A DNA stretch of 63,417 nt from Chiloscyllium plagiosum (taxonomy: Eukaryota): positions 16,760,115 through 16,823,531 of the forward strand of contig NC_057719.1 in the NCBI RefSeq assembly GCF_004010195.1, read 5' to 3'. The notes below the pieces were generated by a model that ran no database searches, had not been told where the DNA came from, and was given only the letters and a program-made list of their open reading frames with translations. Position numbers and translations under genes: made by a program. This document shows positions 12,601 through 53,230 of this stretch, piece by piece; position 1 is the stretch's first letter, and every line of letters starts with the position of its first letter.

Positions 12601-15600
12601 CAATGGAAGAAACTTTGTGCTCACTCTATCCATTCTTGTCTGCTCTCAAAAATACCCAATGATAATAAGCCACAACAGGCCATCACATTAAATAAATCCA
12701 ACTGTGAAACAGCTAATAAATGGCTAATAAATCAAATAAATAAAAAATACAGATGCACTTACTGCTTTATTGGAGGATCAGTGCATGCAATTTACTGGCA
12801 GAAATTTTAAAAAGCTCACCTGGAGGAGGGTGAGTAGTTGGCGGCAATACTGGGTGTGGGGTTTCCAGTTTGGGAATTTTGGGAGGCTGTAGCTCTGTTG
12901 GAGGTGAGAAACATACAGATTTCAGATATTTACAGAAACAAATATACGAGAAATATAAATACACATATTTTAAATGGGGAGTTCTACAAAATATAAAATC
13001 ATAAAAACTGCCAGGTTAAAACGCAAATGTTCATGGATGGCTTTCAGGGAGGTAAAATCAGCTCCTTATCCATCTATGCCTATATGAGAAGTTAAACCAC
13101 ACAGATATTCATGATTTGGAGATGCCGGTGTTGGACTGGGGTGCACAAAGTTAAAAATCACACAACACCAGGTTATAGTCCAACAGGTTTAATTGGAAGC
13201 ACACTAGCTTTCGGAGTGCCGCTGACAACCACCTGGTGAAGGAGTGTCGCTCCGAAAGCTAGTGCTTCCAATTAAACCTGTTGGACTATATCCTGGTGTT
13301 GTGTGATTTTTAACTTCACACAAATATTGACCTTTTATGAGCTCTGAATCAGGCAGGCCAATCCACTCATTTACAAACAATTATGGTGGCTATTGACCTG
13401 GAAACAGTAAGGAAAACTTACAATTGTAAAAATTATAAATTTCACAGACATTGAGAATTTTGAGAAGATTAGCAGCTAAGGTTGAGGTTCTGGATGTAGG
13501 TTTGCTCGCTGAGCTGAATGGTTCATTTCCAGACGTTTCGTCACCCTACTAGGTAACATCTTCAGTGGGTCTCCAGGCAAAGATGTTACCTAGTAGGGTG
13601 ACGAAATGTCTGGAAATTTTGAGAATGCTTGAAAAGGACTTAAGAGTTTGTAGAACTTGCAGTCTTCTTGGTTAATATGAAATACTGATGCATGAAAACA
13701 TTTCATATTTTCTACGTAACGTAGAAACCTTTGACCTGTAAGCAGTGCCATCAAGGAAAACTGCACATTAAAGAGTTGCAGGTACAAAGGAGCGCTAACT
13801 CTAGGAGACCACAGGCAATTAGAATATCAAATGCAGACATAAAAAGAGAGAAAATAAGAACAAAACAATCAACACACCATATCCTTCCAAAAGAAGAAAT
13901 AGATTTCTCTCAGAAAATGAGATTGTACTTGGCCAAAAATGATACAAGGATACTTGAAAGCAAACACAAGCAGGCGGAGAAGGTTATGCTACCGTGAAGT
14001 TGTAAGACAGTTCAGAGATCTAAACAGCTGGCTCATAATTGGCCAAACTGAACTAGACAGTTACTGGCTCTTGGTGTAGTTACTCCATCAGGTCTGTTAC
14101 AATCACAGAAGAGTGTGCTGCTGAGAATGCGGTTGTTGTATAGGACTCGTGACCTAATCTGTTTGATAAAGAACAGTCCCATATTGTGGCACTCCGTAAT
14201 TATGTATTGTTATATTTGTACAGGGAGTAAATGGGGGTGCTTGTGGTCTTGCAAAATGTAACTTTATCATGTTGACTATTTAATGCAAAATATACTTTTT
14301 ATTTAAAATTATTTGGCTGTTAATTCATGTTAAATTTATAGGAATTCTGGTTTGCATTTACATAATGAAACTTATTTGGCAAATTTCTATGAGGGATCAC
14401 TTGGCAAAGTTACTGTCCTGTGCAAGAAAGAGACACAGACATAACTATGGGTACTATTACTACAAAGCAGGATGCGCAACAAAGGTTAAAGCCTAAAAAA
14501 CGTTACCGGTTGTCTTGCCATCTTCCTTTGGCGAAGCCACCTAATTATGGAAGAAGCAAATATAAAAAAGTTAAAACTCAACATGACAACGTGGTAGAAC
14601 TTTGAGTGGAATAAAACAGTATCATTGTATGCTTTACTTTGTTATCAGCCCGCACCTTTAATCACAAAGAATATATCTTGACCAGAAATGATAATATATT
14701 TATATTGTTTGACTTACTGCAGGGCGCTTAATCTGCCGAGGTGGTGTTGACTGAGGTGAAAGTTTTTTGGTTTGCTGCACCTGCAGTGGTGGTATCGGTT
14801 GCTCCAAACTTGGTATTGTTGGCAGTTGTGGCTGGGGTGCCTGGGGCATCTGTTGTTGACCCTGGGAATAAAGGTCCAGTATCTGATGGCAGATGTCTAT
14901 GCAAGACCAAAAGAGCATCAGTCATTTTAACTGTAGAGAAACATATAGTCAAGGATATAGCTTTTATATAACAGATCAAGGTAGAAAACCAATCTAAGTT
15001 TGGAAAACGTAAAGCAACTGCATTGGGTTATCAAGTTGAGGCATCTTAATTTTATAATTACAATAGTTTCATTCCATATAAAGGAACATCAATTAAATGA
15101 TCAATCCTTCGAATCCTAACTGAAGCACTGGATTAGTTTATTGAGACTAAAAATCACTACTATTACATAAATTATACCAGGTTTAAGTTTTTCTTCCCTC
15201 CACCCTGTTTCAAGTTTAGGTTTATATCTTAACCCTTACAGTCTAAAAGAGCAATTGCATGTTGTAAAACAAACACAAGGTTGGCAAAATGATAACTTTT
15301 CCCAGAACATAAATGAAGATCTACATCAAACTATTCTTATTAAATTCAAAAAGCATTTTTTAAATAAAAAAACCTTTAAAAAAAGTTTTAGAAACATACA
15401 AGCAAATGTGTGTGCAACACATCACATTTTGAAGAGATACTGTCAACATTGCCTTAGTGATCTGCACTGTTTACTGTACCTTCCAGTAGTTCCACAGGCA
15501 CGTCCTGTACAAACTGTTCCCACCACCTTCTGTAAATGGGCTTAGCTGACCACTCTTGGATTTCAAATTTGCACAGCCTACCAGCGAGGTACATCACAGC

Positions 15601-18600
15601 CACAGCAATGATCTCTGGCTCCCACTGCAGACAAAGCATGGTGCACAGGCTACAAGACAAAAAGCACATTAGGATAAGAAAAAGGCTCACAGACATATCC
15701 TTTATAAGTCTTAAAATATATCCATTTAATGCCCAAATAGGCTTTTACATTTTTATTTTACAGTAGATTTAAAAAAACAATTATCTTACCTATCATTTAC
15801 AAACGTCCAAGCCATTTGCACCAGCTTTTGAAGTTTATTTTTGTCACCTGCAGAAAGAGAAAATTGGACTAACATTATGTGTAACCTCTAAGTTCAAAAC
15901 CTATGAATTAAAAAAGAAAAGGAGAGTTAAGACTAAGATCTTAAGTTTTCCTATTACATTTTAAAACTGTACCTACTGGCATTGAAGTGCAATTGACCTG
16001 CATTATTCTCACATTGCATTTGAAAGCTTTCCAACCTTTAAGGTATTAACAGAATCTTTGCCTTGATTTGCCAAAGCCCAAAGGCTGATCATTTAATTTA
16101 GGGTGCCCAAGCTTTCTGGCTCCTGATATCCCGTGGAGCCTCCAGCATACCTATAAAATTAATGTCCCCATTAATCTGCATATGTCTCAAGGTGGTGATA
16201 TTTTACCTTGGCATTCAGATTTAGAAATTGCCTTTACTTCTAAAAATATTACTCTTCAAAATTCCAGGTTACAAAAAAAGTATTTTGGGACAAACTAAAT
16301 AATTAGAAGTAGAAATAGAATTATGCTAAGCTTTGAATGTCAGATTTTTAGGTCATAATCATGTGACTCAGGCTGCAGGTTAGACACCCTGCTTCAAATG
16401 CTGAAATGTAGTATGTGCTATGTTTAGAAGCATGCGCATAACGTGCATTTCTTAGAAAACAGTAGTTCATGATTTATGTTCATGGCAGAAGATTTACCAC
16501 CACCAGCTCCTAACCCCAATCTATGTAACTTGTAAATGCACAAGGCCAGATACTTAGCCATGAAGATTGTAGGTTTGGCCCCTGATCTGTTTATGCCAAC
16601 AAGTAAAAGAAATAAAACAACCAGTAAATATAGCCACAAACTCCAGTTTTTTTTCTATTATGTAAAATAGGAGGGGTGAGAGACAGGGTGGGGAAAATAG
16701 AGATGTAACAACTGAGGTGACTTGCTCATGACCTTGACCCTGAGAGTGTGTACATAAGAAAAAAGAAAAAAAGGAGTGGGCTATTTGGCTGCACGAGCCT
16801 GCAGTGCAATTTACTAAGCTCATGTCTTATTTTATACCTTGATCTACTTTCCCATATGCTTTAATGTCCAAACATTAACTGAGCTCAATCTTAAACATGT
16901 TTCATAACAGAGCACAACTGTATGGGGTGGGGAAATACAAACATAAACACCTTAGCGAGTTTTGAGAAGATTTGTAACTCAGCTTGAGCTTTTGGATGTA
17001 GGTTTGCTCGTTGAGCTGGAAGGTTCATGAACCTTCATCCAGCAAACCTACATCCAGAAACACCTTTGAGACAAGGAATCTCTTCTCATTTTTGTCCTAA
17101 ATACCTGTCCTGAGACACTGGCCACTAGTTTCGCACTCTGAGACAGTGAGGTCTGCAGATGCTGGAGATCAGAGTTGAGAGTGTATTGCTGGAAAAGCAT
17201 AGCAGGTCAGACAGCATCTGAAGAGCAGGAAAATCGATGTTTCAGGCCAGAGCCCTTCCTGGTGCAGGTCTCTGGCCCAAAATGTCAATTTTCCTGCTCC
17301 TCGGACGCTGTCTGACCTGCTCTGCGTTTCCAGCAACACACACACACACAACTCTAGTTTTGCACTCTCCAGCCTGGGTAAACAACAATTGCGCATCTAT
17401 CCCGTCAAGCCTGTTATGAACCTGAAATTTTTCAATAATTAATTAAATAGCTAAATAACATGGAATTTCAATTCCTATCCATACTCAAATAACACTGTTT
17501 GAGTTGACAGAATGGACACTGGCCAAACAGAAGGGTTGAGTCCCCAAGAAAATGTGTCCCAGCAAGAACCAAATTAAAACCTTACAAGGAAGTGGAGGAA
17601 TAACCACAAGTGAACCACACACAGATACAGTTAAAGAACCAAGACAACGTGAAATTTGGTGGAGTTGTGAATAATGAAGAAGGTTATCCAAGAGTACAAT
17701 GGGATATACATCAGTTGGAAAGCTGGGCAGAGAAATGGCAGATGGATTTTAATTGCAAGCTTTGATTCTATATAGACAATTAAATAATCAAAAGATTAAA
17801 TGCAATGGCTCAAACATTGGTGTAGTGATCATGCATAACCTGGTAAGTCTTTGGGTTTGGCAAACCTTAGCAATTTCAAATATAGCTCATACCAAACAAC
17901 AAAGCAGTGCTTCCCAAACCTTTTCCCAGTGACCTGACTCAAGGCTCGAAAATTGTCTGTCCCTTTGGTGAAAACAGACATGGGGGGGGGCTTCACCCAT
18001 GAGATGAGACGGGATGCAGCAGAAAATGTGAGATAGCCAAGGGGAGTGGGGAGAAGCTCCACAGCGGCCATTATTGTTTCAATTTAGAACAAATTTCAGC
18101 TCATGCCTCCACTAGGGGAAGCCCTGCCACTGACTAGATATGATAATCCTGGAATGCAATTGTAGAGAAATTGCTTGCAATGGTGAAACTAGCAAAACTC
18201 ACTATCAGGAATTTTAAAAATTCAGAAGCACAATACATTAAAATAAGTTCTCTCAGCACTATTGAAAGAGCAAGCCAGGTGCAGTTTATTTTTCATGGCT
18301 TTTTGTATCTGATTTGAATGTGCATTCGCGAAGTGAAATACACATTGGGAGGACAACATGCTGAAACACTGATGGGTTGCGGAGTTAACATGCACAGCTT
18401 ACTTCTTATAAATACATTACAGACTATCATGTGCGTTGTATGTGTCTGCATGCATAACATTTATATACCCCCATCACTACAGCAGTGCATAAATCACTAA
18501 TCCTTTAGTGTGAACATTTAACATTGTATAGCAAGCAGCATTGTCAACATCAACATGTACAAGTCAAACAAACCACTATTAGAAATGTTTATCGTACAAC

Positions 18601-21600
18601 AAATTCAGAAGTGAACAAGGCTAGAATTAAGTTGAGATTCAGGCGATTATTTTAATTCAAACTAGACCTGGGACTTCTTTTAATTCAATCAATACTAATT
18701 TAGCAATGGAACATCTCTTGAAAATTTAAAGATTTAAAATCCAGGATTGTCACCCCACATTTTGTACAAAATTGATTTGGACTTAAAAAGAGAGAGTAGT
18801 TGTGGAGGTGTGTTTTTCTGACTGGAGATCTGTGATCAGTAGTGTTCTGCAAAGATCAGTGCCAAGACATTGGTTATATAAAAATGATTTGGATGAAAAT
18901 GTAGATGGTCTGATAAGTAAGCTTGCAGACAAGAAAATTGGTGGAGCCGTGGATAGTGAAGAAGGTTGACAAAGGATACACTAGGACATAGATCAGTTCA
19001 AAGGTTGGGGTGGAGAAATGGCAGATGGAGCTTAATCTGGACAAGTGTAAGGTGATGCATTTCGGGAGGTAAATTTCAAGAGGAAAGTATACACTAAGTG
19101 GCAGGATACTTAGGAGCATTGATATAAAGAAGGATCTTTGTGCAACACAAGTGGATAAGGTGGCATGCTTACTTTCATCAATAGTGGCAAAGAGTATAAA
19201 AGTTAGCCTATCATGTTGCAGCTGTATAAAACTTTAATTCAGTAAAATTTGGAGTATTACTGCAGTTCTGGCCAACACCCTATAGGAAGGATGTGGAGGC
19301 TTTGGAAGGTGCGAAAAATGATGTCGCCTATATTGGAGTTTATTATCTACAAAGGAAAAATTGGTCAAACATGGATTGTTTTTGCTAGAGCACTGGAGGT
19401 TGAGGGGTAACCTGATAGAAGTATATAAAGTGAGAGGCATGGATGGGGTGGATAGTCAGATCCTTTTACCCAGTATTGAAATGTCAAAATCTAGGGGGCA
19501 TAGGTATAAGTGAGAGTGGGAAAGTTTAAGAGATGTGCAAGGAAGATTTCTTTTCTACATAGAAGCTTGGAATGTGTTGCTCGGGGGAGATGGTAGATGT
19601 GGATACGATAGCAACGTTTAAGAGGCATTTAGACAGACACTTGAATAGGCAGGGAATAGAGGGGTATGGACCATGTACAGGCAGATGGGATTAGTTTTGA
19701 ATATCATGGTTTGTTCAGACATGGTGGGCCAAAAGACCTGTTCCTGAGTTGTACTGTTCTATGTACACTGTTACAATTACTATCTTCAGAAACATGGTAT
19801 TCAAGGGATAGCTGTTTCAGTTTTGTTTGAAATATGCTTTCCATTCTAATCAGTGTTTAAAAACAAAACTGACAAACTATAAATTGAAATTACAGAGATT
19901 CTGCATAAACATTTAATTCCAGTACCTTTAAGCTGTTTAGCATACTTAAGCAAGAACTGATAGGGATGTTCAACCTGCAAGTCAAATTTAATTGTCTGTA
20001 ACAAAATCCTCTCCAGTACCATGACTTCTTCCTAATTTAAAAACAAGATGAAAAGAAACACAATAAGTAAAAACATGGATACTCTGTTTTAAAATTATAG
20101 TATGGTAATGACATGCATGCTTAGGACTACATTATTCCTTTTCATATAGCGTTTTACTGCTAAACAGCATATCTGTTCTGAAACTATTTGATTTAACATT
20201 ACTGTACAAATGAGAAAAATAGGAGTATGTTATTTGGCCCCATGAGCCGGCTCCACCACAGATTAGTATTTATTTTTAAAACAAACTATGCCCAAAAATA
20301 GAATCACAGAAATGAATATACAATCAAATTTGCAGATGACACAAATATATATGGGAGAGCAAGCAGTAGTAGGATGACAACAAGTCTGCAGAGTGCCATA
20401 GATAGGTCAAGTGTGTGGGCAAAAACTAGGCAGATGGAATATAATAAGAAAACAGGAGGCTATGCAGTTTAGTGGGAAGAGAAGAGCAGAGTATTATTTG
20501 AATGGGGAAAGACTTCAGAAACCTGCAGAAGGGGATTCAGCTGTCTTGTGTCAGAGTCAAAGAAAGCTAGCATACAAGTTCAGCCATTAATAAGCAAGTC
20601 AAATGGATTGCAAATCTATATTTCAAAGGGAATGGAATAAAATAGGGAGATCTTGCTAAAACCATACAAAGCATTAGTCAGACCACACCTGAAATGCTGT
20701 GAACAGTTTTGATAATCTTATCTAAGCAAAGTTTAATGGCACTGGAGTAGTCCAGTTGATTCCATGAATAGAAGCATCTTCTTGTGAGGAAAGGTTGAAT
20801 AGGTGGGGCTTGCACTCAATGGAGTTCAGAAGAATTAATCATTGAAACATAGGTTTATAAATGGGAATGACATGGTAAATGCAGAGAGGTTGCTTTCCCT
20901 TGTGGGAGAGTCTAGGACTAAAGCACATAATCTCAGAAAGTAGTGAATCTGTGGAATTCTTTACTATAGAAGATTTTCAGGGCCAGTTAATTAAATGCAT
21001 TTAAGACAGCGATAGACAGATTTTTAATCATTAAGGGAATCAAGGGTTTCAGGGATAAGGCAATAAAGTGGATTTGAGGATTATCAGATCAGCCATGATT
21101 TCACTGAAAGATGAAGCAGACTCCATGGGTTGAATCACTTACTTCTGTTCCGACATCATATGTTCTTATAGAGGAAGATAAAATATAGTACGTTCTTGTC
21201 ATGTTATTGCAATATTTGGACAATGGAGTAAACAGACTAAGAACAGTTTCTCTAAACCAAATGCATACAGAAAATGTCTGCTTCACTGGACATACTGAAC
21301 AGAGTTGCCTTTTTCAGAAATTCATTTACAATACAATGCCTGAATGAATTGGCCATCCATTCAACATGATCTATCCCACAGACAAAATAAAAAAGGTTTC
21401 AGGCTTTGCTGGATTGCTTGTACATCCAGTCAAGCTGAGCACAAAATGTCCCATTGCTGTTTTTAAAAGTTTGCTGTTCTTTTTAAACTTTTGTTTTGCA
21501 TTTCTCTGCTTACCTATAGTGAAGTTATTTGTTCCAGCAGTAACTTTGCTTTTGACATTAATAGAGTCCAAGTACCAATCAACAGTATGAACAGTCTGTC

Positions 21601-24600
21601 ACTGCAAAGTGGGAGGGCCACATTTATCTTTAAGCATCACTGCAGAAGCGGCTACAGAACAATGAGTTGAGCGAAACAAACTCTCATACACAAAAGAAAT
21701 GTTCTGGATCCTATTCTGCAAAGTGTGGTCTTCTATTTTTCCACTCTCCTCTTTTCCTTTTCAAAATAAGCTTGTGGACCAGATCAAAAGGAGCACTTGG
21801 ACTGAATTTGCAGATGTACAATATCCTCTTAAGAAAAATAAGTGCAAAGATATTTAGCTCGAGAACAACTTCAATTCAGTAAAGATAAAAGTAGGTTTAC
21901 ACTGTTCCATCAAGGAACACTCAATATTAGTCAATCACACTTAGAATAAAATTATCTTTGCTTACACCAACACTTTTTTTACTCCACGAAATATTGTTGG
22001 GGGACCTGAATGATTCTATGCTACAGAAGAGAACACCAATATAGCTCAATTTTTCTAGTACTTAAAACATCTTTCCTCTTAGAAGGGTGGTAGACAACTG
22101 GAACATTCTGCCTGAAAGGGCAATAGAGGCAGAAACTCCCACCACATTGAAAAAGTGCTTGCGTGTCTACTTGAAGAGCCGTGACCTGCATAGAAATGGA
22201 TCAAGAGCAGGAAGGGGAGTTGATACTGGGTAGCTCTTTGTCAATTAGCATAGACATAATGTGCTGAATAACCTCCTTGTGTTGTACTTTTTTTTAATGA
22301 CTCACCACATTGCTCATATATGTATTTTGAAAAACTACAATTAGCAATAACCTTGGGATCATCTCCAAACTGTGAAAACTGTACATCATTCAGCAAACTT
22401 CGAGCGGTTTTAATGATGTCTTTACACTTTTTAGGAGTCTCTTCTACTTTCCCAGCCAGGAAGAGGCAGCAGGCTCCTGTAACCTAAAAAATAAAAAAAA
22501 AGTTAAATTCTAAAAATACATCAATTTAAGGTCTAGGAGCTTTACGCGATACCTAATATTAATTGATTTGGAAAGAGTACCTCAACAAGACAATATTCTA
22601 TCAGCGGGTATTGGCCTTATGCATCCAATCAGAACACAATGAAATTTTGTTACAAAATTTCTTTTAACATACTAGTGCTGTTTACGGACAGAGGCTGCAA
22701 ACTGCAGAATTTTTAAAAAATGTTGTTTGCTTTTTTATTTTCCCATATCAAGCCCTTTCTTCAACTGAACAGTAAATTATTCAACCTGTGGCAATATTAC
22801 TCTATAACTAGTGTCTCAGACAATGTTACTGATACTGGTGGAGTTTGCACTTATAGCGACAAACTGCCTGGCCTGTCAGAGTACAAATCAATGCAGAATA
22901 TTGCTTTGAATGATACAAACAACAGACAAGTACAACCAGACAAGAAAACCAGTGTGTACAGAGAGACTCTACAATACCAACATGGATAATATTTCAACCT
23001 TAATTTCCATCCTAAAATTACAATGAAAGGGTTCTCTATAGCTTGTTTTAGATTTGTCATAAGATGTATACTTTAAGTGGGTGGAAGAGAAACCTTAAAA
23101 CATATTGTTTACATAGTTCAAGTCTCAAGGATTCATACTATTGCTTGGAGTTTGTCAGTTGTTTCAGAATCTGTGGCTCTTATCAACATGGTTTTAGTTA
23201 TTGATTGGCTCTCATCACCTCAAGATGATGGTAATCTCTGGTGGACAACTTAACATCATACACAACACTGCTGTCCACATCAACCTTCACACCAAGTGCT
23301 GCCCACCTGTCACCCTAATGCTTGCTCAGCCATGACAGCTATTGGCTAAGCAGATGCCTAGATTTAAAATGCTCCCCCTTGAAAAAAAAAATCAAACTAC
23401 CTTAGCCCCAAATTGTCTGCTCCATTCAGTTCTGGTGTCCCTGATTTAAATATGTTCACCTTTAGTGTTCATGCCTCAGCTCCACACCCGGGTATTCTCT
23501 TTCCAAACTTTTACCTCTCCTTCACTCTTCAAAATGTTCCTAAAATGCTACCTGTTATGCCAAGCTTCTCATTCACAGCACTAATATCACCACACGTTGC
23601 TTGGTTTGAAAGTTTGTTTTATAGTGTGCTTGTGTAATGCCATTAATTACTTCAACAGAAGTTTATTGTTGTTCAGGAAAATATAACAAAGCAATGGAGC
23701 AATGCTATCGTCACATTAGTTTCATTTGGAATGACGGTCAGTACTTACATATCGTGGAAATTGCTTGAAGGAATGAAACATATAGAAACGATGAAAATAT
23801 ATTATTCCTGTGGCCAGTGTGTCATAATGTCTGTAGTTTTGGTTAAAGAAATATTCAGTTTGTTATGACTTCTCTCAGCAACTGTGAACAAAGCTGAAAG
23901 ATAGGAATGGGATTGTGGTGCAATGAGGATACATAACATACCTATGAGAGAGGCGATGCTTCTTCACAAGTACTATTACAACAAATAACTGGATGTTGAT
24001 TTCATTGTCAACACTGGAGGTTTTACACTTTAGATCTCCTTGGCCTGTTCTACACATTTCCAGACCAGTTCATCTCGCAGTCACACAGATGGAAAATTCT
24101 ATGTTCAATCCCTGAATTGTGCTGACAAAAATCATTGATTTTTCCTTTCTATTTTGTTAGTGGGAAGAAAATTAAACTTTGAAGTAAGGCACATATCCAA
24201 AGGGCACAACCCAAATTTTGGCAGCTTAGTATTTACTCTGGACTCTCAGTTTTGATGATAGGACACCCGAAATGTTAACTTTGTTCCTCTCTCAAAAGAG
24301 TTCAGATCTGTGGAGCATTTCCAGCATTTTATGTTATTAAGGAACTAGGCACCGAGATTTGGATCAAACATATCTCATTATCAGTTGTAATAATCCCATG
24401 TAAATTTACTCAATGTGCTCAATTTACAAAGAATCAAAAGTATTTTCTATAAGTTCCTGACAACAAGAACAACAATCTGTTGGCGAGGAAAGCATCCTGT
24501 TTCTCAGTCCTCCCCATCCACGCCTCAATTAAGGAATTTTGAAGAAGAAATTTTAAAAGGATACAGCCCCAAACGTGTTCCCACATCAAATATAAACCTG

Positions 24601-24761
24601 GCACCCTCCCGACGGTAGCGTGCCTCTGTTGCTGGATCAAGTCCTTCAAGTTGTGATGGGGTGTGGGCCAGATCCTTTTTGTCCCAATACCAGCATGGCT
24701 TCCTGAGGTCTGCATTTGCCAGTGCTGTAGTTGGGGTGGAGTTCTCCTTATTTTCCTTCAT
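9054..24761 (-). CDS. CCNK: Cyclin K, spliced CDS (10 coding exons, 1617 nt, 538 aa)
   Basis: Exons 24565-24761, 23749-23830, 22352-22483, 19926-20031, 15790-15847, 15480-15649, 14718-14896, 14507-14540, 12820-12894 and 9054-9637 join in frame, all GT-AG. The protein (MKENKENS...[54 protein letters not shown]...) with a proline-rich tail matches vertebrate cyclin K. Confidence 0.98.
9960..10070 (+). mobile_element. Old LINE/SINE shared 3' tail fragment
   Basis: 'ctcaagagcaattagg...taaatgctagcctagtcagcagtgccca' recurs degenerately at 35350-35430 and 60530-60600. Confidence 0.55.
10140..10405 (-). mobile_element. Young CR1 3' fragment with an internal deletion of about 250 nt
   Basis: Near-identical to 46998-47197 and 47447-47510 of the young CR1; encodes [52 protein letters not shown]. 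Confidence 0.9.
11135..11960 (+). mobile_element. CR1 (HER1-like) LINE, 5'-truncated, in CCNK intron 10
   Basis: Degenerate WQMEFN.DKC.VLHFG and [19 protein letters not shown] motifs; 3' tail 'gtacatctctatgactatg'. Confidence 0.9.
12820..12894 (-). CDS. CCNK: CCNK exon 10 (75 nt)
   Basis: CAACAG|AG ... CCA G|GTGAGC; encodes (E)[24 protein letters not shown]. Confidence 0.95.
13110..13316. mobile_element. Penelope-related fold-back element with 12-bp TSD
   Basis: Arms are reverse complements; TSD CACACAGATATT (13098-13109) / CACACAAATATT (13317-13328); hammerhead-like core CAC-CTGGTGA-A-GGAGT-GTC-GCTCC-GAAA-GCTA-GTG with a mutated A6. Confidence 0.85.
13459..13618. mobile_element. Penelope-related fold-back element with 8-bp TSD
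   Basis: 13524-13562 is inverted at 13580-13617; TSD TTGAGAAT (13451-13458 and 13619-13626). Confidence 0.8.
13529..13568 (-). ncRNA. Minimal type-I hammerhead ribozyme motif (CCNK-sense, intron 9)
   Basis: Minus strand reads CCA-CTGAAGA-T-GTTACC-TAGTAG-GGTGAC-GAAA-CG-TC-TGG: intact CUGANGA and GAAA core, stem II, 3-bp stem I (CCA/TGG), GUC cleavage triplet. Confidence 0.7.
14507..14540 (-). CDS. CCNK: CCNK exon 9 (34-nt micro-exon)
   Basis: CTTCCATAATTAG|GTG GCT TCG CCA AAG GAA GAT GGC AAG ACA ACC G|GTAACG = [11 protein letters not shown], homologous to human VVSPKEENKAA; needed to keep the frame. Confidence 0.92.
14718..14896 (-). CDS. CCNK: CCNK exon 8 (179 nt)
   Basis: GCATAG|AC ... 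GCA|GTAAGT; encodes (D)[18 protein letters not shown]...PPRQIKRPA. Confidence 0.95.
15480..15649 (-). CDS. CCNK: CCNK exon 7 (170 nt)
   Basis: CTTGTAG|C ... GAA G|GTACAG; encodes [33 protein letters not shown]...VELLE. Confidence 0.97.
15790..15847 (-). CDS. CCNK: CCNK exon 6 (58 nt)
   Basis: CTGCAG|GT ... GAT AG|GTAAGA; encodes (G)[18 protein letters not shown](S). Confidence 0.97.
16954..17057. mobile_element. Miniature fold-back element (same family as 13459) with 9-bp TSD, inside an old CR1
   Basis: 'ggatgtaggtttgct..gaaggttca|tgaaccttc..agcaaacctacatcc'; TSD AAACACCTT at 16945-16953 and 17058-17066. Confidence 0.8.
17140..17353. mobile_element. Penelope-related fold-back element (family 'GTGAGGTCTGCAGATGCTGGAG') with 15-bp TSD
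   Basis: Inverted arms; TSD CTAGTTTCGCACTCT (17125-17139) / CTAGTTTTGCACTCT (17354-17368). Confidence 0.85.
17905..18126. mobile_element. Possible hAT-type MITE remnant
   Basis: Ends CAGTGCTTCCC... and ...GGGAAGCCCTG form a 10/11 inverted match resembling Charlie-type TIRs; no 8-bp TSD seen. Confidence 0.35.
18790..19765 (+). mobile_element. CR1 LINE, 5'-truncated and degenerate
   Basis: Degenerate RT C-terminal motifs (W...TSG.PQGS, KWQME.N.DKC.VMHFG); tail 'gtactgttctatgt'. Confidence 0.85.
19926..20031 (-). CDS. CCNK: CCNK exon 5 (106 nt)
   Basis: AATTAG|GAA ... AAA G|GTACTG; encodes [35 protein letters not shown]. Confidence 0.97.
20325..21170 (+). mobile_element. Old CR1 LINE 3' portion
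   Basis: KFADDT-like start; 3' UTR 'atcagatcagccatgat...cttacttctgttcc'. Confidence 0.8.
22352..22483 (-). CDS. CCNK: CCNK exon 4 (132 nt)
   Basis: TTTTTAG|GTT ... AAG|GTTATT; encodes [44 protein letters not shown]. Confidence 0.97.
23749..23830 (-). CDS. CCNK: CCNK exon 3 (82 nt)
   Basis: CTACAG|A ... TAT|GTAAGT; encodes (L)[27 protein letters not shown]. Confidence 0.97.
23831..24564 (-). other. CCNK: U12-type (minor spliceosome) GT-AG intron, CCNK intron 2, 734 bp
   Basis: Donor GTATCCTTTT; branch-point motif TTCTTTAAC at 23842-23850, about 10 nt before the AG; no polypyrimidine tract. Confidence 0.93.
24565..24761 (-). CDS. CCNK: CCNK exon 2 coding part (exon 24565-24765; ATG at 24759-24761)
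   Basis: TTTTCTGATTCCAG|GTAA ATG AAG GAA AAT AAG; encodes MKENKENS...DVGTRLG(L). Confidence 0.97.
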
Positions 24762-26595
24762 TTACCTGGAATCAGAAAACAAACTTTGACTTAGAAGTTC
24801 AATTGCCAAACATATAATTGGTATCACAAATAGTACTGCAGGGGGAAAATTAGAAATTGCTGGAAAAGCTCAGCAGCACTTGTGGAAAAATGACCCTTCT
24901 GCTTTATCTCCACAGATGCTGCCAAACCTGGAGTTTTTCCAGCAATTTCTGTTTTTGTTTGATCTCCAGCACCAGCAGTTTTGCTTTTTTTTTAATACTG
25001 CAGGGATTTTTTTTTGTAGATAATATGATCAAATTGCACAAAACTAGATCCTCCAGAAACCACACCGAAGTTGGCACAAGGGTCAACACTTCAAGTTCAA
25101 AACAATTTCTTGTTCTGTAAGAAAAATAGATTTCAATGCTGCATGATTTACAAATAGGAGTTGATTCTGTAGTTCAAAGGGTAGTTTAAAGTAACAGTGC
25201 AACATGGCCTCAGTGAATAGCAGCTGATGTTCACCATGCCAGTCTCCATTTTCTATTGGCTTGGAAAATGTTGCCAAAATTATTAATAATATCAAGTAAA
25301 AGCACTTAGAGACAATAAGAAATAAGTCTTTAAAAATAAATGCTGATTTGCTTTGAGCCCATCTCAAATTGCTGGTATAGACAGATTCCACCTGGACATG
25401 GAAACAACCTTGGCCTCATCACTCAACTCTGATGCTTTGACAAAAAGAATCCAAGTGTAAGAACTAAGGTCAACTGTATGTATGCTTGCGCTACAAAATT
25501 GAAATCATGGTCAACAATTTAAATTCTGCATTCAAAATAAATGGCATGACAAAAAATGAGTTTGCCAACTTTAACTTTATTTATTAATTTAAGTTAAGTG
25601 AAAGACATGATTATTTTGACAAATCTGTGATATCATGCTACAGAATGCTGACGTTATATTCCAGATTAAGTGGTTCAGAGAAAGCCCACAATCTTTGTTT
25701 TATTATTTAAACTGAGGGAGAAACTCATCAAAGATCACAGGAAAATAGTCTCCGTTATAAACTGTTAGTCCATTTGTTAACTTCAGCAAATTAAGTGGTC
25801 TCACACTTAAATCCCTTCCAGAACTTTGTGGAATTGCGGGGATTTGAACACTTGGGGATATTATTTGGTATCATCAGTTCCTTGGCACTGACTGCATCCA
25901 CCCCTCTCAGTGAGTGTATAGTTTCTGTTCCCAGTGCTGTCCCAAAGACTGCACATTTCCAACTTAATGTTGACGATCATCACTGACTGCTGGAACCCTT
26001 CTTTAGGTCATTGCCACCCTCAGACTCCATTACTCAACGCTCACCTTGCTAGCCTATGTTTCACGTATCATAACTGGTTAATCGAAAACAGCATTCTCTC
26101 CCCCACCATGTTCCATTTAACCAATCTTTGCAAACCTGCATTCTTGACATTTTGCAAACTCAAACTTGATATTTTCGTTTTCTATGACTAACTATGTGAC
26201 AACCAAACTTTAAGCTTCTCTCCATTACGTCAGAATCATCCCTTGCTGCCTTTCTAAATTCATTAGGCCATATAAGCATACCCCTATCCCCACAATGCTT
26301 CTGCTTTCCACCAACTCTGGTTTCTGTTCCTTTGAATTTCAGGAATATACTACTACCCTCGGCTCCTAAGAGCTTTGTAATTCCTTTCCTGAAACAACCA
26401 TCTATGTCACTATGTTAACGGTCCCAAATAAAAGCAGAAAAGACGACTGAGTCATGGAGATAAGGGAAGTGCCAAGATCTTGGTTAGTGTTGAAACATAA
26501 TTCCTCTCTCATTGAGCAGGATACTATTACAACAATCATCAGTATGTTTTATGGAATGACAAAGAAAAACAGATAAAGGGCTAGAACCTGAAATG

Positions 26596-27766
26596 AGATT
26601 GTGTTGCTGGAAACGCGCAGCAGGTCAGGCAGCATCGAGGAGCAGGAAAATCAACGTTTTGGGCCAGAGCCCGTCATAATCATAGAGATATACAGCACGG
26701 AAACCGACCCTTCGGTCCAACTTGTCCATGCTGACCAGATATCCCACCTGTCAGCGCATGGCCTATATCCCTCCAAACCCTTCCTATTCATATACCCATT
26801 CAAATCCCTCTTAAATGTTGCAATTGTACCAGCCTCCACCACTTCCTCTGGCAGCTCATTCCATACATGCACCATACGTTGCGTGAAAAAGTTGCCCCTT
26901 AGGTCTCTTTTATATCTTCCCCCTCTCACCCCAAACCTATGCACCCTCTAGTTCTGGACTCCGACACCACAGGGAAAAGATTTTGTCTATTTATCCTATC
27001 CATGCCCCTCAATTTTGTAAACCTCGATAAAGGTCACCTCTCGGCCTCCGACGCTCCAGGGAAAACAGCCCCAGCCTGTTCAGCCTCCCCCTGGAGCTCA
27101 AATCCTCCAACCCTGGCAACGTCCTTGTAAATCTTTTCTGAACCCTTTCAAATTTCACAACATCTTTCCGATAGAAAGGAGACCAGAACTGCACGCAACA
27201 TACCAACAGCAGCCTAACCAATGCCCTGTACAGAAACAACATGACCTCCCAACTCCTGTACTCAATACTCTTACCAATAAAGGAAAACATACCAAACATG
27301 TCCTTCACTATCCTATCTCCCTGCGACTCCACTTTCAAGGAACTATGATCCTGCACTCCAAGGTCTTTTTGTTCAGCAAAACTCCCTCGGACCTTATCAT
27401 TAAGTGTATAAGTCCTGCTAAGATTTGCTTTCCCAAAATACAGCACCTCACATTTATCTGAATTAAACTCCATCTGCCACTCCTCAGCCCATTGGCTCAT
27501 CTAATTAAGATCCTGTTGTAATCTGAGGTAACCTTCTTCGCTGTCCACTACATCTCCAATTTTGGGGTCATCTGCAAACTTACTAACTGTACGCTCACAT
27601 CCAAATCATTTATACGAATGATGAAAAATAGGGGCCATCAGAAATCAGAAGGGCTCCGGCCCAAAACATCGATTTTCCTGCTCCTTGGATGCTGCCTGAC
27701 CAGTTGTGCTTTTTCAGTAACACACTAACTCTGATCGCCAGCATCTGCAGACCTCACTGTCTCCTA
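26596..27766. mobile_element. Penelope-related fold-back element split by a CR1 insertion
   Basis: Left arm 26601-26672 and right arm 27648-27765 are reverse complements; flanked by a CTGAAATG direct repeat (26588-26595 and 27771-27778). Confidence 0.8.
26673..27640 (-). mobile_element. CR1 (HER1-like) LINE, 5'-truncated, in CCNK intron 1
   Basis: ORFs 27009-27500 (WAEEWQMEFNSDKCEVLYFG...LERRRPRGDL) and 26651-26944 ([22 protein letters not shown]). Confidence 0.93.
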
Positions 27767-28177
27767 TAAACTGAAATGTTAACTCAGTTTCCAGTTTCAC
27801 AGATAATGCCAACCCTGTTGAGTATTTGCAACATTTTCTGCTTTCATTTCAGAAAGTGAAAGAGAATTGTGGAGATTTACGAAGGGAGATCCACAGCTTT
27901 GGGTCTAAACAATAGAAGGAGCAGTTACCATTAGCAGAACAACTTAACTCAGGATGCTCAATGGATGATGATTGGAGTGTCAAGATCCTGGAACTCTGTA
28001 AAGCTGGATGGTGTTAAGAGATAGGGAAACAATGCAGAAACATCATTCTTTCATTTTTCAAATGGCAAGTGCGCTCCAACAGTCTACCAAGTCACTACCT
28101 TACGACACATGCTCAAGTGGAAAGTGTTGTGAACATCAAGTGTGAAAAACTTAATGCTGAACAATTTACTGTACTAC

Positions 28178-28716
28178 TGTCGTCCCGCTTCCCCCTCAGT
28201 CAAAGCAAAACACTCCGAGACATAGTATAGTTTTACCTTCATCTTTATTCCAGGCCCTGTAGGAAGAGAATGATCGCCCCATGCGCGCAAGAACGCGAGT
28301 TCTCGGTCTTCTCTCAAGAAGTTTCTTAATGAATTATATAGTCATTTTACAAGGAGGAGCATCCAGATAAGGCAACAGACGTATTAATTGGGTGACCAAT
28401 ACAATCAACGAATATCAAGGTCAGAGACCAAGCCCTTAACAAGGTTAAGACCATTCATTGTATAATAGTAAACTGGCTTCATACTGGATACTTTTCCCCC
28501 TGTTAACTGACCTTTCATACTGAATGCTTCCAATATTGTTAAATGGCTCTCCATAATGACTGCTTTTCCACCTTGTTAACCTATTATCCTTGCCTCCAGC
28601 ACCCCATTGTTAACTATTTCTTATCTGATGTGAGTCATGCTCAACTGAACCTCTTGTTTCACAAAACTGTGAACTTAACTCTTTCCCTGCCTGCTTATAC
28701 CCTATACACATTCTCA
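28178..28716 (-). mobile_element. Solo LTR (539 bp), ERV- or Gypsy-type
   Basis: TG...CA termini; perfect 4-bp TSD CTAC (28174-28177 and 28717-28720). On the minus strand: U3 with repeated GTTAACA motifs, TATATAA (28334-28340), AATAAA (28244-28249) and a GT-rich U5. Confidence 0.75.
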
Positions 28717-28912
28717 CTACTAAGAAGTACTCCATTGATCAAAGTGTCACCACCATAAAACGGAGGCCTTTTTGCATGTTCATGTACGAAGATCCAAAGA
28801 TACTAACAAAGAGTATTACGGGTGTCCCGGTGAATGTTTAGCATTTAAAACATTGAAAACTGATTGGAATTCTCTCCAATCTTTGCATGGCCATACTGTG
28901 TTACCACAGTGG

Positions 28913-29452
28913 TTAAGATGTGGAGAAGTCGGTGTTGGACTGGGGTGGACACGGTTAAAAATCAGACAACACCCATGTTATAGTCCAACAGGTTTATTTG
29001 GAAGCACTAGTTTTTTTTAGATTAGATTAGATTACTTACAGTGTGAAAACAGGTCCTTCGGCCCAACAAGTCCACACCAACCCTCTGAAGAGCAAGCCAC
29101 CCAGACCCATTCCCCTATACTTAGCCCTTCACCTAACACTACAGGCAATTTAGCATGGCCAATTCACTTAACCTGCACATTTTTAAACTGTGGGAGGAAA
29201 CCAGAGCACCCGGTGGAAACCCACGCAGACACGGGGAGAACGTGCAAACTCCACACACAGATTTGCCTCGGGTCTCTGGCACTGTGAGGTAGCAGTGCTA
29301 ACCACTGTGCCACCGTGGAGCGCTACTCCATCAGGTAGTGGTGGAGCAAGACCATAAGACACAGAATTTATAGCAAAAGATCTGAAGGAGCAGCGCTCCA
29401 AAAGCTAATGCTTCCAAGTAAACCTGTTGAACTATATTTTTTAAAACCTTGT
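28913..29452. mobile_element. Penelope-related fold-back element with 9-bp TSD, interrupted by a SINE
   Basis: TSD CCACAGTGG (28904-28912 and 29453-29461); arm sequence shared with the 13110 family. Confidence 0.8.
29017..29316 (-). mobile_element. HE1/V-SINE-like tRNA-derived SINE
   Basis: Head ACGGTGGCACAGTGGTTAGCACTGCT (box A), V-domain-like centre, CR1-like tail ending (AATCT)n. Confidence 0.88.
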
Positions 29453-41630: not shown

Positions 41631-41903
41631 GGTTCAAAGTTTGGGAGAAGATTTGTAGCTCGGGTGCTTGTTGTTGTGGTTCTTTTCGCCGAGCTGGGAA
41701 TTTGTGTTGCAGACGTTTCGTCCCCTGTTTAGGTGACATCCTCAGTGCTTGGGAGCCTCCTGTGAAGCGCTTCTGTGATGTTTCCTCCGGCATTTATAGT
41801 GATGTGTATCTGCCGGAAGAAACATCACAGAAGCGCTTCACAGGAGGCTCCCAAGCACTGAGGATGTCACCGAGACAGGGGACGAAACGTCTGCAACACA
41901 AAT
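41631..41903. mobile_element. Penelope pLTR fold-back (same family as 32357) with 10-bp TSD
   Basis: Arms 41631-41800 and 41811-41903; TSD TTGGTAGAAG at 41621-41630 and 41904-41913. Confidence 0.92.
41855..41894 (+). ncRNA. Minimal hammerhead ribozyme motif with GUC triplet (mirror copy at 41709-41748 on the minus strand)
   Basis: GCA-CTGAGGA-T-GTCACC-GAGACA-GGGGAC-GAAA-CG-TC-TGC. Confidence 0.75.
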
Positions 41904-44255: not shown

Positions 44256-45100
44256 GTGTTTGTGACATGGACTGACAACAATGGCTTTGTTCTTCCCAAT
44301 AATTAATTGTTGTTAGGTTCTGTTCAACCAGATTTGATTTTGACTCCTTGCGTTACAGTTTACAAACTGTACTGTGTGTTTCATTGAGAGAATATGTGTG
44401 TACTTCCCATGTTAAACCGAAACCAAGTAAATGGATACAAACAGGGAAATAATACTTTCCTCCCCACAATCAAGAGTTTATTCTTGTCTGCTTTACCAAG
44501 ATTCTTTTGAAATAACATTTGATTTGATGAAAAATTGTTACTTTTAAAATTGTTTCGGATACAAGGAGAGTAAGGTAAGTAAAAATGCTGGAAAAACTCT
44601 GATCTGCCACCATTTGTAGAGAGAGAAACATTGTTAATGGTTTGAGCCCAATATGACTTCTCTTTAGAACGCAGACTAAGAATGATGTTTGGAAATTTTT
44701 TAAAAAGTTGACTGGAACATTTGAGCAAGAATCTGTGTAAGAGCTGATGTTCATTTTAGTCAGCTAATGCAGGGCAAAGTAATAGTGACTGAATGGACAT
44801 TTTATGAGCACGACAGTGTATATGGAGGTACTAAGAGGATGAGAAAACCAGAGAAGTAATATAAAATATTTTTTTTGTAAAGCAGCTAAAGATATTAAAG
44901 ATTAAGCATAATGTAAAGAAGCTGCTGTTCTTTTGAAATACTAACTCTGGAACTTTTCTGATCTGAAAGTCCATATTTGTAGAGAAAAGAAATGAGACAT
45001 GGGTATTGGAATAGGAATCTCCAATAGGGCGTAAGTCTCCGTTTTAAAAAGTGTTGGGCAAACGTTTTGTTCATGCAGCCAATGATGCAGGTCCAAACTA

Positions 45101-45789
45101 TAGGTAGTTGTTGGATAACGCGCATTCTGGCAGCGCAATCTGTCTATAACATCACTGAAGAATTAGGGAATGGTTTTATTTGAAAATGCTTGTCTCTGTT
45201 CGTAATAGCGTGATTCCAGTGGGGATCGGTTTGTGAGCTTTGTTCTGCACATGTGCTGATGTCCACACTGAAATCTTCACACCATTCTGCGCATGCACCG
45301 ATGTCTGCGCCGAAGACTTAGCTGCGTTCTGCACATGCGCAATGTCAGCGCTGGTCTTTGTGCCATTCTACACATGCGCAATGTCAGCGCTGGTCTTTGT
45401 GCTGTGCTGTACTGCACATGCGCAATGTCAGCGCTGGCCTTTGTGCCATTCTACACATGTGCAATGTCAACGCTGGTTTTCATGCTGTACTGCATATGTG
45501 CCAATGGCAGCTGCCAACAGAGCAGCTTTCTGTGAGAGATACTATACCGAGAGCAGCTTTCTTACATTTTTCAATTGTACTGTGTTAAATTTGCTTTTGT
45601 TTAATTAATAAATATAATTTCAACCTTCATTCAGGCTGTGCTATACTTTGTGTTAGACTTCGAAGTGTTTTTTGAGTGATTTTCTTTTTGCTGGGTTTGC
45701 CCCAGCCCCACCTTTCCCATAAGTCCCATTACTTATATTAAGCGAGGTTTTGCTGGAACACAACTGCGGCGTTATAGAAGAACCACCTG
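45101..45789. mobile_element. Tigger/pogo-like (Tc1-mariner) non-autonomous DNA transposon
   Basis: TA on both flanks; TIRs TAGGTAGTTGTTGGATAACGC and CAGGTGGTTCTTCTATAACGC (reverse complement) match at 16/21. Confidence 0.7.
45241..45505 (+). repeat. Minisatellite, ~40-bp unit, 6-7 copies
   Basis: Unit approximately TTCTGCACATGCGCAATGTCAGCGCTGGTCTTTGTGCCA. Confidence 0.9.
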
Positions 45790-46258
45790 TAATTGCATCC
45801 TTATAATGACATGACCCACTGGTTCTTTCGGCATGTTTCAATTTCCAAACATAAATGTTTGCTAAACATTTTTTTTGAAGATGGTATTCCTTTAAAGGGT
45901 GAATAGATCCTGGATATCTTAACCGTTCATTATTTCCATACTATTTTTTTCTTGGTGTGTTTGTACACACATGTTGCAGGAAAATCTTCAAGAAAATACA
46001 GGGAACATGATAATTTTCAGCAAAAGTCTGATCACTATCTGGGAGCACTGAAAAGGAGGTAAGCCAGGGCCTAGAGTTACCTTTGATTAAAGGAGCAAAG
46101 TATCCCTGAGAATTTTAAGGTAGAATATCAAGTCTTGTTATTGCATTCAAGTTCTGTTATTTCATCTTGTTACTGTCTTTTTAAGGCAAAATTTTCAAAA
46201 CTGATTTCATGCCTTGAGGTTTATATTTGTATATTGACTATGAATAAACTTTCATTTG

Positions 46259-47512
46259 GAATCTTGAATTTTTTGAGGATATAACTATGAAGTTGGACGA
46301 GGGAAATCCAGTAGATGTGGTGTACCTGGACTTTCAGAAAGCTTTTGATAAAGTCCCACACAGTAGGTTAGTGAGTAAAATTAGGGTGCACAGTATTGGG
46401 GGCAAAGTACTAGATTGGATTGAAAATTGGTTGGCTAATAGGAAACAAAGGGTAGTGATAAACGGCTCCATTTCGGAATGGCAGGCAGTGACCAGTGGGG
46501 TACCGCAGGGATCCGTGCTGGGACCACAGCTTTTTACAACATATGTTAATGATATAGAAGATGGTATCAGCAATAACATTAGCAAATTTGCTGATGATAC
46601 AAAGCTGGGTGGCAGGGTGAAAAGTGATGAGGATGTTAGGAGATTACAGGGTGACCCGGACTAGTTAGGTGAGTTGTCAGATGCATGGCAGATGCAGTTT
46701 AATGTGGGTAAATGTATGGTTATCCACTTTGGTAGCAAGAACAGGAAGGCAGATTTCTACCTCAATGGAATCAATTTAGGTAAAGGGGCAGTACAGAGAG
46801 ATTTGGGTGTTCTTGTACACCAGTCAATGAAGGCAAGCATGCAGGTACAGCAGGTAGTGAAGAAGGCTAATAGCATGCTGGCCTTCATAACAAGAGGAAT
46901 TGAGTACAGAAGCAAAGAGGTGCTTCTGCAGCCGTACAGGGCCCTGGTGAGACCACACCTGGAGTACTGTGTGCAGTTCTGGTCTCCAAATTTGAGGAAA
47001 GACATTCTGGCTATTGAGGGAGTGCAGCGTAGGTTCATGAGGTCAATTCCTGGAATGGCAGGATTACCATATACTGAAAGACTGAAGCGACTGGGCTTGT
47101 ATACCTTTGAGTTTCGAAGATTGAGAGGGGATCTGATTGAGACGTATAAGATTATGAAAGGATTGGACACTTTGGCAGTAGGAAATATATTTCCGCTGAT
47201 GGGTGAGTGCCGAACCAGAGGACACAGCTTAAAAATACGGGGTAGACCATTTAGGACAGAGCTCAGGAGAAACTTCTTCACCCAGAGAGTGGTGGCTGTG
47301 TGGAATGCTCTGCCACAGGGGGCAGTGGAGGCCCACTCTCTGGATTCATTTAAGAAGGAGTTGGATAGAGCTCTCAAACATAGTGGAATCAAGGGTTATG
47401 GAGATAAGGCAGGAACAGGATACTGATTAGCAATGATCAGCCATGATTATATTGAATGGCGGTGCAGGCTCGAAGGGCTGAATGGCCTACTCCTGCACCT
47501 ATTGTCTATTGT
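46259..47512 (+). mobile_element. Young CR1 LINE, 5'-truncated ORF2 RT with one premature stop
   Basis: ORFs 46287-46664 ([29 protein letters not shown]) and 46674-47426 are in the same frame, separated by TAG; tail (CTATTGT)2. Confidence 0.96.
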
Positions 47513-53005: not shown

Positions 53006-53230
53006 GGAGAAAGTGAGGGCTGCAGATTCTGGAGATCAGAGACGAGAGTGTTGTGCTGGAAAAGCACAGCCAGTCAGACAGCATCTGAGGAGCAGGAGAA
53101 TGGAGGTTTTGAGCATAAACGTTTCATCAGAAATCAGTTTCCTAATGAAGAGCTGATGCTCAAACATCAATTCTCCTGCTCCACGGATGCTGTGTGTGCT
53201 GTGTGCTTTTGCAGCACCACACTCTCGACT
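53006..53230. mobile_element. Penelope-related fold-back element (17140 family) with 17-bp TSD
   Basis: Inverted arms; TSD CTGTTGTATATAATATG (52989-53005) / CTGTTGTATATTATATG (53231-53247). Confidence 0.85.

Follow-up and report, generated by a model that had tools for sequence, protein, structure and literature searches.

Inverted Penelope-like element stubs in a shark cyclin-K/SETD3 locus and their possible origin by priming from both target strands

Introduction

An adjacent, inverted, 5′-truncated copy together with a tail of 30–40 bp at one end is typical of Penelope-like elements (PLEs) (PMC8557442, PMC3846280), and the target-site duplications (TSDs) of rotifer PLEs measure 8–10 bp (PMC8557442, PMC3846280). 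The origin of these inverted structures is an acknowledged open question (PMC8557442). For Poseidon of Anolis carolinensis (PAc), the available text of PMC11167929 demonstrates cutting of both target strands in vitro, and locates the PAc starts at two sites that delimit the tail, 111–118 nt past the start of the ORF. In addition, opposite-strand hammerhead pairs 100–700 bp apart are recorded in metazoan PLEs in the accessible part of PMC4209133.

Here we describe a window of 63,417 nt from Chiloscyllium plagiosum, the cyclin-K/SETD3 locus of this shark, in which 12 head-to-head inverted insertions were found. The inverted-copy-plus-tail architecture is already published and is not new. Like the endonuclease-positive PLE units described before (PMC8557442, PMC3846280), the shark insertions have a head-to-head inverted copy, a tail at one end, strong 5′ truncation, TSDs and junction palindromes. 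In contrast to those units, nearly all shark copies consist of only 100–300 bp of end sequence, their TSDs reach 17 bp, and either arm can carry the loop. Features in common with PAc, as given in the available text (PMC11167929), are an ORF start in the hammerhead, an end about 110 nt inside the ORF, two ends bounding a tail, AT-rich flanks and, at the C terminus, a GIY-YIG domain. The hammerheads resemble the minimal ones of metazoan PLEs in having CUGANGA, a bulged base, a long stem II, GAAA, a two-base palindrome and a short stem I; however, the cores of one shark family (F4) are decayed in every window copy, and sharks are unmentioned in the accessible part of that paper (PMC4209133). Non-LTR retrozymes are likewise hammerhead-bearing, pLTR-derived and mostly non-coding, but they are tandem direct repeats of at least two hammerhead units (bioRxiv 10.64898/2026.07.22.740005), whereas the shark elements are solitary inverted pairs with TSDs. 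A search of openly available literature listed no paper that treats palindromes of shark PLEs or traces such palindromes to two-ended priming.

Results

Inventory of insertions and target-site duplications

The density of insertions is about one per 5 kb across several families, labelled F1–F5. All 11 insertions of a preliminary description of this DNA are present as inverted arm pairs, and a twelfth, at 24844–24992, had been overlooked (13-bp TSD, P 0.001). The parts are as follows.

13110–13316, unstranded: F1 insertion whose left arm (to ~13222) bears the tail and whose right, tail-less arm falls 38 nt short and includes the centre; a one-mismatch hammerhead core lies at 13233 (+); TSD 13098–13109 / 13317–13328
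13459–13618, unstranded: F2 insertion; tail arm left; intact minimal hammerhead at 13565, minus strand; short arm stops 66 nt before the end of the long arm; TSD TTGAGAAT, 13451–13458 / 13619–13626
16954–17057, unstranded: F2 insertion, 104 bp; short arm 39 nt short; TSD 16945–16953 / 17058–17066
17140–17353, unstranded: F4 insertion; tail arm left; centre from the tail-less arm; microhomology 3 nt (17256–17258); TSD 15 bp
24844–24992, unstranded: F5 (F4-related) insertion with the short arm on the left and the tail arm on the right; TSD of 13 bp, 24831–24843 / 24993–25005
26596–27767, unstranded: F4 insertion; tail-less arm 26596–26677, tail arm 27648–27767; TSD 11 bp
28913–29452, unstranded: F1 insertion; tail arm left, interrupted at ~29017–29318; TSD CCACAGTGG, 28904–28912 / 29453–29461
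29964–30746, unstranded: F1 outer pair; tail-less arm 29964–30171, tail-side arm 30466–30746; no convincing TSD
30172–30465, unstranded: inner F1 pair, from a different subfamily and nested in the outer one precisely where that folds; no TSD
32357–33395, unstranded: F3 insertion of 1039 bp with the tail-less arm on the left and the tail arm on the right; TSD 13 bp
41634–41903 (also called 41632), unstranded: F3 insertion with its tail arm on the left and a short arm that lacks 67 nt; two intact hammerheads; TSD 10–13 bp
53006–53230, unstranded: F4 insertion with the tail arm on the left and a centre that is near-symmetric; TSD of 17 bp
4374–4686, minus strand: one F1 arm by itself, tail included; neither an inverted partner nor a TSD was found
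1–1705, minus strand: RT reading frame of Penelope/Poseidon type, broken, from a family that is sister to F3; it continues past the edge of the window

The 26596 insertion interrupts an older F5-type end (flanks 26570–26595 and 27768–27850) in its hammerhead region, which is decayed, and a fragment of about 960 bp (26678–27640), which we take to be a LINE 3′ end from its repeated homology within the window, is placed exactly at the fold of the 26596 pair. The insert that splits the tail arm of 28913 (~29017–29318) is presumably a SINE; the short arm of this copy has lost 14 nt internally, and its end is at the usual inner site. The 32357 insertion is probably missing from a related species.

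The long TSDs claimed before were borne out: among the 12 inverted, 5′-truncated pairs, 10 have duplications of variable length (8–17 bp), nine of them beyond chance. Direct repeats at the boundaries measure 12 bp (13110), 9–12 bp (16954), 15 bp (17140), 11 bp (26596), 13 bp (32357), 10–13 bp (41632), 17 bp (53006) and 8–9 bp (13459), and these eight score P 0.0005–0.01 against a null of 2000 random boundary pairs. The perfect 9-bp pair of 28913 (28904/29453) was outside the set scored against this null, and the nested pair 29964/30172 gave no convincing TSD against random boundary pairs (P 0.10 and 0.66). Chance matching was rejected as the source of the TSDs.

Families and their relation to Penelope-like elements

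The retroelement origin and the PLE link that had been proposed are supported. The F2 and F3 arms are pieces of autonomous RT-endonuclease elements. The expected GIY-YIG coding sequence was found in both arms of 32357. By Pfam alone this match is weak (E 0.05); compared with shark proteins, the F3 endonuclease fragment is 92–95% identical, and some of these proteins have an RT domain. For F3, RT and C-terminal GIY-YIG occur in one ORF joined to the terminal repeat. F2 matches the end of the RT-endonuclease protein P0025 at 70% over 27 aa (E 7e-4), a weaker link than that of F3. No match above chance level was found for F1, F4 and F5 arms among 119 proteins, and no coding sequence could be tied to them; their PLE membership is suggested by architecture, and their origin may be Neptune-type. 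The label Poseidon-type for F3 would follow from the geometry of ATG, hammerhead and terminus in common with PAc.

The families are less distinct than the four dissimilar ones described at first, as F2 and F3 are 69% alike over 104–106 nt (E 4.5e-11), and F4 and the family of 24844 (F5) are 68–71% alike. In metagenomes, the 19-nt pattern of the F2/F3 end was found at one locus, otherwise without likeness to the window, and in viral contigs at none. No RNA holding 30750–33900 was listed. The insertions are very probably 3′ ends of PLEs, namely dead-on-arrival, 5′-truncated copies of several endonuclease-bearing families whose palindromes were built at insertion.

Two end positions

What had been described as a fixed terminus is the PLE tail end. 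In 9 of the 11 target-adjacent cases the inverted arm is short of the last 33–41 nt, which confines a 30–40 bp tail to one end; off the inner site are two short arms that end at 66–67 nt and one internal arm that ends at 55 nt. In reads and contigs from two species, F3 ends occur at exactly two positions, 39 nt apart, inside the start of the RT open reading frame. Loose ends on one F3 arm, with heterogeneous, AT-rich flanks, pile up at 33396 (135, 85 and 86 contigs; 52 reads), and a second pile lies at 33357–33359 (89 contigs in X1; 22 + 44 reads). Moreover, protein P0028 continues through the F3 terminus into the RT frame, so the fixed terminus lies inside the ORF of the next unit. A further pile at 33264 was rejected as an alignment edge arising from two private changes (33262–33263) and a subfamily variant. 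RNA reads showed a strand bias of about 8:1, which was left unused, as the reads come from many copies and A-rich priming is a possible cause.

Relative to the ATG in the hammerhead, the tail end of F3 lies at +107 nt and the tail-less end at +68 nt. On this comparison, the two ends match the pair of sites at which RT was seen to start in vitro in Anolis Poseidon, with the differences that F3 is placed by sequence and PAc by biochemistry, and that the available PAc text is silent on inverted insertions (PMC11167929).

Hammerheads

Our own minimal-hammerhead descriptor, run over the window, returned five perfect cores (four F3 arms, one F2 arm), one core with one mismatch and one with two (both F1). 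Five shuffled windows used as control gave no hits at 0–1 mismatch and 0–2 at two. Hence, a core in each family, as the preliminary description had it, applies to F2 and F3 (intact) and to F1 (near-intact), whereas for F4 it is only suggested by scattered parts: no core was found in the window copies of F4 even at two mismatches, and 16954 (F2) has none at all. Rfam gave no hammerhead family, and the palindromes yielded only sub-threshold microRNA hairpins. When 10 hammerhead regions were folded by energy, none had a z-score below −1.5, and energy was therefore not used as evidence. By hand count, 12 of the 23 F1–F4 arms stop within ~15 nt of the hammerhead core; F4 arms all end (6/6) between 8 nt before and 5 nt after it. 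The hammerhead would be the ordinary pLTR motif of these families, carried along.

Fold junctions

Fold points differ in every copy of a family, which answers the earlier question of whether they are copy-specific or shared. A DNA-transposon or MITE origin was rejected, with ends unequal by 33–67 nt, TSDs of 8–17 bp and copy-specific centres. Membership in the non-LTR retrozymes was also rejected: the elements are inverted pairs, and the sole direct juxtaposition lies inside the nested 29964–30746 unit. The related proposal, in which non-autonomous units of MITE-like or retrozyme kind would move as preformed hairpins, draws on the similar size of F4 copies (~205–225 bp minus the LINE), on the near-hammerhead ends of all six F4 arms, and on the lack of coding sequence for F1, F4 and F5 in the window. 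This proposal is nevertheless very improbable, because no two copies have exactly the same junction, the tail makes the two ends unequal, TSDs vary in length and no tandem monomers occur among these elements. Nor is there a high-depth common opposite-strand joint among the F3 joints listed; two such joints occur among 15 listed of 57, each in a single contig and at different places.

In 13110, 17140 and 32357, 3 of 9 informative copies, the unpaired centre is part of the tail-less arm; in six copies it is part of the tail arm, and in three it is near-symmetric. The centre is 14 nt in 32357 and 18 nt in 41634–41903, where it falls on the tail arm, with a 5-nt microhomology (41811–41815) in the latter. 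In 16954 it is the perfect palindrome TCATGA, downstream of where the absent hammerhead would be. The 17-nt centre of 13459 was assigned to the long arm without an independent reference. In two copies another retroelement sits exactly at the fold (the presumed LINE in 26596, the second PLE pair in 29964–30746).

Self-priming, as put forward for rotifer Penelope (PMC3846280), would have one cDNA or antisense template fold back and be copied; the endonuclease would resolve the hairpin and remove the tail from one arm, a step to which the tail has been attributed (PMC8557442), and later central deletions would shift the loop. The six tail-arm centres fit this, as do directly the junctions of 16954 and 41632, the latter with perfect snap-back geometry (5-nt stem, 18-nt loop), and subfamily and rare letters are common to both arms of one element. 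However, a copied arm cannot extend further inward than its template, so simple snap-back cannot make copies whose centre lies on the tail-less arm; moreover, the spacing of the tail-less end coincides with an in vitro RT start site. We consider this origin rather unlikely, though it is the first alternative to be kept in mind. Of the stereotyped fold-back integration suggested before, the making of the inversion at integration stands, whereas a single cDNA snapping back fails for the three tail-less-arm copies unless later deletions occurred.

The arms of 32357 are identical at 471 of 491 positions, each with a broken GIY-YIG coding sequence and an intact hammerhead. They agree at 15 of 16 family-polymorphic sites and have two rare letters in common (1% and 7% in the family), so one template, one source locus or gene conversion fits as well as two primings. 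An inter-arm indel in 13110 that matches copy 4374 was discarded as proof of two templates, as it lies in a TG repeat and is too weak.

Collapse of larger structures, in which a template jump or a deletion across the stem removed the middle of longer inverted insertions or of transcripts from inverted-pLTR source loci, would permit a centre on either arm and arms from one source, and microhomology is present at several junctions. Yet it leaves unexplained both why, at many loci whose flanks are fresh and unrelated, the tail-less end falls on a single fixed base and why 12 of the 23 arms stop near the hammerhead core, and we regard it as improbable.

Discussion

Tail-less-arm centres and retroelements placed exactly at the fold favour priming from both target strands. 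According to the scheme that we consider the most likely mechanism, at about an even chance, an element protein, probably a dimer, would nick both target strands 8–17 bp apart, a stagger suggested by the TSDs. Both 3′ ends would then prime reverse transcription on element RNA, from an outer internal start site to give the tail-bearing arm and, on the other strand, from an inner site ~35–40 nt upstream to give the tail-less arm. Both cDNAs may end prematurely, in many cases close to the hammerhead's 5′ edge, and the two 3′ ends would be joined head to head through 0–5 nt of microhomology. Occasionally, free cDNA ends may first prime another RNA, so that the fold would come to contain a LINE or another PLE pair that has no TSD.

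In LINE-1 twin priming, both target strands prime cDNA and produce a 5′ inversion flanked by a TSD, and the inverted part is mostly upstream, non-overlapping sequence. The inverted part of the shark elements, in contrast, duplicates the 3′ end and begins at a defined second site. Against two-ended priming, later central deletions could place the centre on either arm, and the mechanism is drawn from 12 elements and 15 of 57 joints. PLE stubs with palindromes made by two-strand priming are the best overall explanation, in which our confidence is slightly above even. More tentatively, PLE palindromes may be the genomic footprint of two-ended integration, with a dimeric RT-endonuclease, both staggered nicks, two internal RNA start sites and joined cDNA 3′ ends, where unjoined ends may capture a LINE (26678–27640) or a PLE pair (30172–30465) without a TSD.

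Annotation can mistake such stubs for MITEs or microRNA hairpins. Host introns also acquire long stems from them; 41634–41903 is predicted to fold with 90% of its bases paired, and these stems may be substrates as double-stranded RNA. In a genome with very many short copies, loop side, the two end positions and captured inserts can be counted, and two-ended priming and snap-back thus become separable without new biochemistry. If two-ended integration is true, it would be directly countable in shark genomes, with their very many copies.

Inverted insertions at the cyclin K/SETD3 locus

Every inverted insertion of the preliminary description was recovered by inverted-repeat searches of the window, together with an additional one at 24844-24992, and the elements, named here by their left starts, range from 104 to 1039 bp. 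Against a null of 2000 random boundary pairs, 9/12 two-armed elements tested have boundary duplications at P 0.0005-0.01 (13110, 13459, 16954, 17140, 24844, 26596, 32357, 41632 and 53006), while the nested pair 29964/30172 gave none in this test; 28913, which is not among these nine, has a perfect 9-bp duplication with its right end correctly placed. The insertions are real and well bounded. The DNA run X13, from a second species, contains a 731-nt contig at flank depth whose match to the right flank of 32357 starts at base 33396, where the duplication begins. The first 339 letters of this contig do not match the element, which is the pattern that an empty site in the second species would give. 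In run X1, the flank contig of 32357 begins within the element.

The window is vertebrate DNA with 40% GC, and its landmarks are as follows.

15463-15651, minus strand: cyclin K exon match (E 1.7e-31)
30800-31700: GC-rich stretch separating the exons of cyclin K and SETD3, which are divergent; palindromes 29964 and 32357 lie within 1 kb of it
45236-45511: tandem array in the SETD3-side region, units of roughly 33-40 nt
46250-47510 and others: numerous SINEs and 3′ fragments of LINEs, of which some contain long open frames
61786-61887, plus strand: SETD3 exon match (E 4e-11)

The inverted elements lie between these exons on either side of the GC-rich stretch and are most likely intronic. The stretch itself is probably a promoter common to both genes.

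Families, hammerheads and proteins

Terminal-repeat families of the inverted insertions
F1: 4374 (single arm), 13110, 28913, 29964, 30172
F2: 13459, 16954
F3: 32357, 41632
F4: 17140, 26596, 53006
F5: 24844 and several decayed single ends

F2 is related to F3 (69%, E 4.5e-11) and F4 to F5 (68-71%), so that the four dissimilar families first proposed become three groups. A minimal-hammerhead descriptor gave five perfect matches (four F3 arms and one F2 arm) and two imperfect ones, both in F1, with none in F4 arms and none at up to one mismatch in five shuffles. An intact or decayed core in each family, as first proposed, is a fair description, but the F4 core is a putative one assembled from parts spread over copies. 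Decayed single-armed F5-like ends with no clear inverted partner lie at 1830-1915, 24240-24340, 29524-29620 and 44580-44670. Moreover, the flanks of 26596 (26570-26595 and 27768-27850) look like the two parts of a single older, decayed F5-type end broken at its hammerhead, so that one Penelope-like element (PLE) would have landed in the ribozyme motif of another.

The suggested GIY-YIG link to PLEs holds for F3, because both arms of 32357 code for a broken GIY-YIG domain with relatives among 21/29 candidates (best 92-95% identical), several of which also have an RT domain. F2 has a weaker tie, as it matches an RT-endonuclease protein at its read-through end, and no tie to any of the fetched proteins was found for F1, F4 or F5. 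The element proteins have their nearest named relatives in carpet sharks. A broken Penelope-type RT frame with a YVDD motif at 1-1705 (minus strand), 77-78% identical to zebra-shark proteins, belongs to a sister family of F3 and is possibly the autonomous partner of F2. In addition, the fetched proteins P0001 and P0019, annotated shark isoforms of MAP3K7 and a 5′-nucleotidase-domain protein, end in F3 endonuclease sequence, which we read as exonised or mis-annotated PLE pieces.

The tail end of F3, described earlier as a fixed terminus, lies 107 nt after an ATG that overlaps the core of the hammerhead; for the tail-less end the distance is 68 nt. The fetched protein P0028 starts within the terminal repeat of F3 (91% to the 41632 arm across 53 aa) and runs through this terminus into an RT frame; therefore, the terminus is not a transcript end but a point inside the reading frame.

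Two end positions across copies

Four runs were aligned to a single F3 arm, 32865-33900 (16,350-31,408 contigs per DNA run), with a summed depth of ~100,000 times flank depth, which is not a copy number. Among the matches listed (24 rows of loose ends, another 1,379 lying beyond), ends with long, heterogeneous, AT-rich flanks pile up at 33396 (135, 85 and 86 contigs) and, with the same flank type, at 33357 (89 contigs, X1); RNA reads give the same two places, 33394-33396 (25+52) and 33358-33359 (22+44). In the window, 9/11 target-touching short arms fall short of the tail end by 33-41 nt. The other two, one copy in each Poseidon-type family (13459-13618 and 41634-41903), stop at 66-67 nt, which may reflect chance truncation or a third start site; for the internal arm of 30172 the distance is ~55 nt.

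In Anolis carolinensis Poseidon, as PMC11167929 describes, the ORF begins at stem II of the hammerhead, the 'tail' is bounded by two start sites, cleavage and extension occur on both strands, and the prediction is of a dimer. Reverse transcription starts there 111-118 nt into the ORF, compared with 107 and 68 nt after the ATG for the F3 ends.

Fold points and mechanism

No fold junction is common to two copies within a family, and 2/15 listed F3 joints (of 57) change strand, each in a single contig and at its own place. Propagation of the inverted pairs as units is highly improbable. The proposed MITE or retrozyme origin is likewise not supported; retrozymes are defined as tandem units in bioRxiv 10.64898/2026.07.22.740005, and the window elements are inverted pairs. 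By hand count, 12/23 F1-F4 arms stop no more than ~15 nt from the hammerhead core. All six F4 arms are among them, but no F3 arm is, and this clustering suggests that template RNA starts, or RT stalls, near the core. Junction microhomology is 5 nt in 41632, 3 nt in 17140, 1 nt in 13110 and absent in 32357; the 16954 junction is a central palindrome.

Six copies have their unpaired centre on the tail arm: 13459 and 24844 (both assigned without an independent upstream reference), 28913, 29964, 30172 and 41632. In 13110, 17140 and 32357 it is part of the tail-less arm, as the protein frame confirms for 32357, and the centres of 16954, 26596 and 53006 are near-symmetric. A snap-back cDNA must own the loop and be the longer arm at the outer end, and therefore the three copies with the centre on the tail-less arm need later deletion or two-sided priming; we consider snap-back with endonuclease resolution doubtful. 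Priming of cDNA from both sides of the target has, in our judgement, about an even chance. The 32357 arms agree at 15/16 family-polymorphic sites and have two rare letters in common, which counts against two independent templates, but such agreement would also arise from gene conversion or from a single source locus. Collapse of larger structures seems improbable.

Two folds hold other retroelements: a LINE fragment lies exactly at that of 26596, its 3′ end adjoining the left arm, and the 30172 pair, without TSD, exactly at that of 29964. Both agree with priming of another RNA by free cDNA ends, and later insertion into the hairpin tip is a possible alternative.

In earlier studies, PLEs often have an inverted 5′-truncated copy adjoining the 5′ end and a frequent 30-40 bp tail at one end (PMC8557442). 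Inverted pLTRs flanked by TSDs of 8-10 bp have palindromes at their junctions and sometimes a 31-bp tail, with self-priming on an antisense template as proposed origin (PMC3846280). The minimal hammerhead was defined with mention of opposite-strand pairs 100-700 bp apart (PMC4209133). Stereotyped integration is supported, yet largely published, and the window elements are a fresh instance of a known architecture. Our literature search, with most subscription papers outside its coverage, found no paper ascribing PLE inversions to two-ended priming or describing them in sharks. The remaining interest lies in a refined mechanism that can be put to the test, and it rests on 12 copies.
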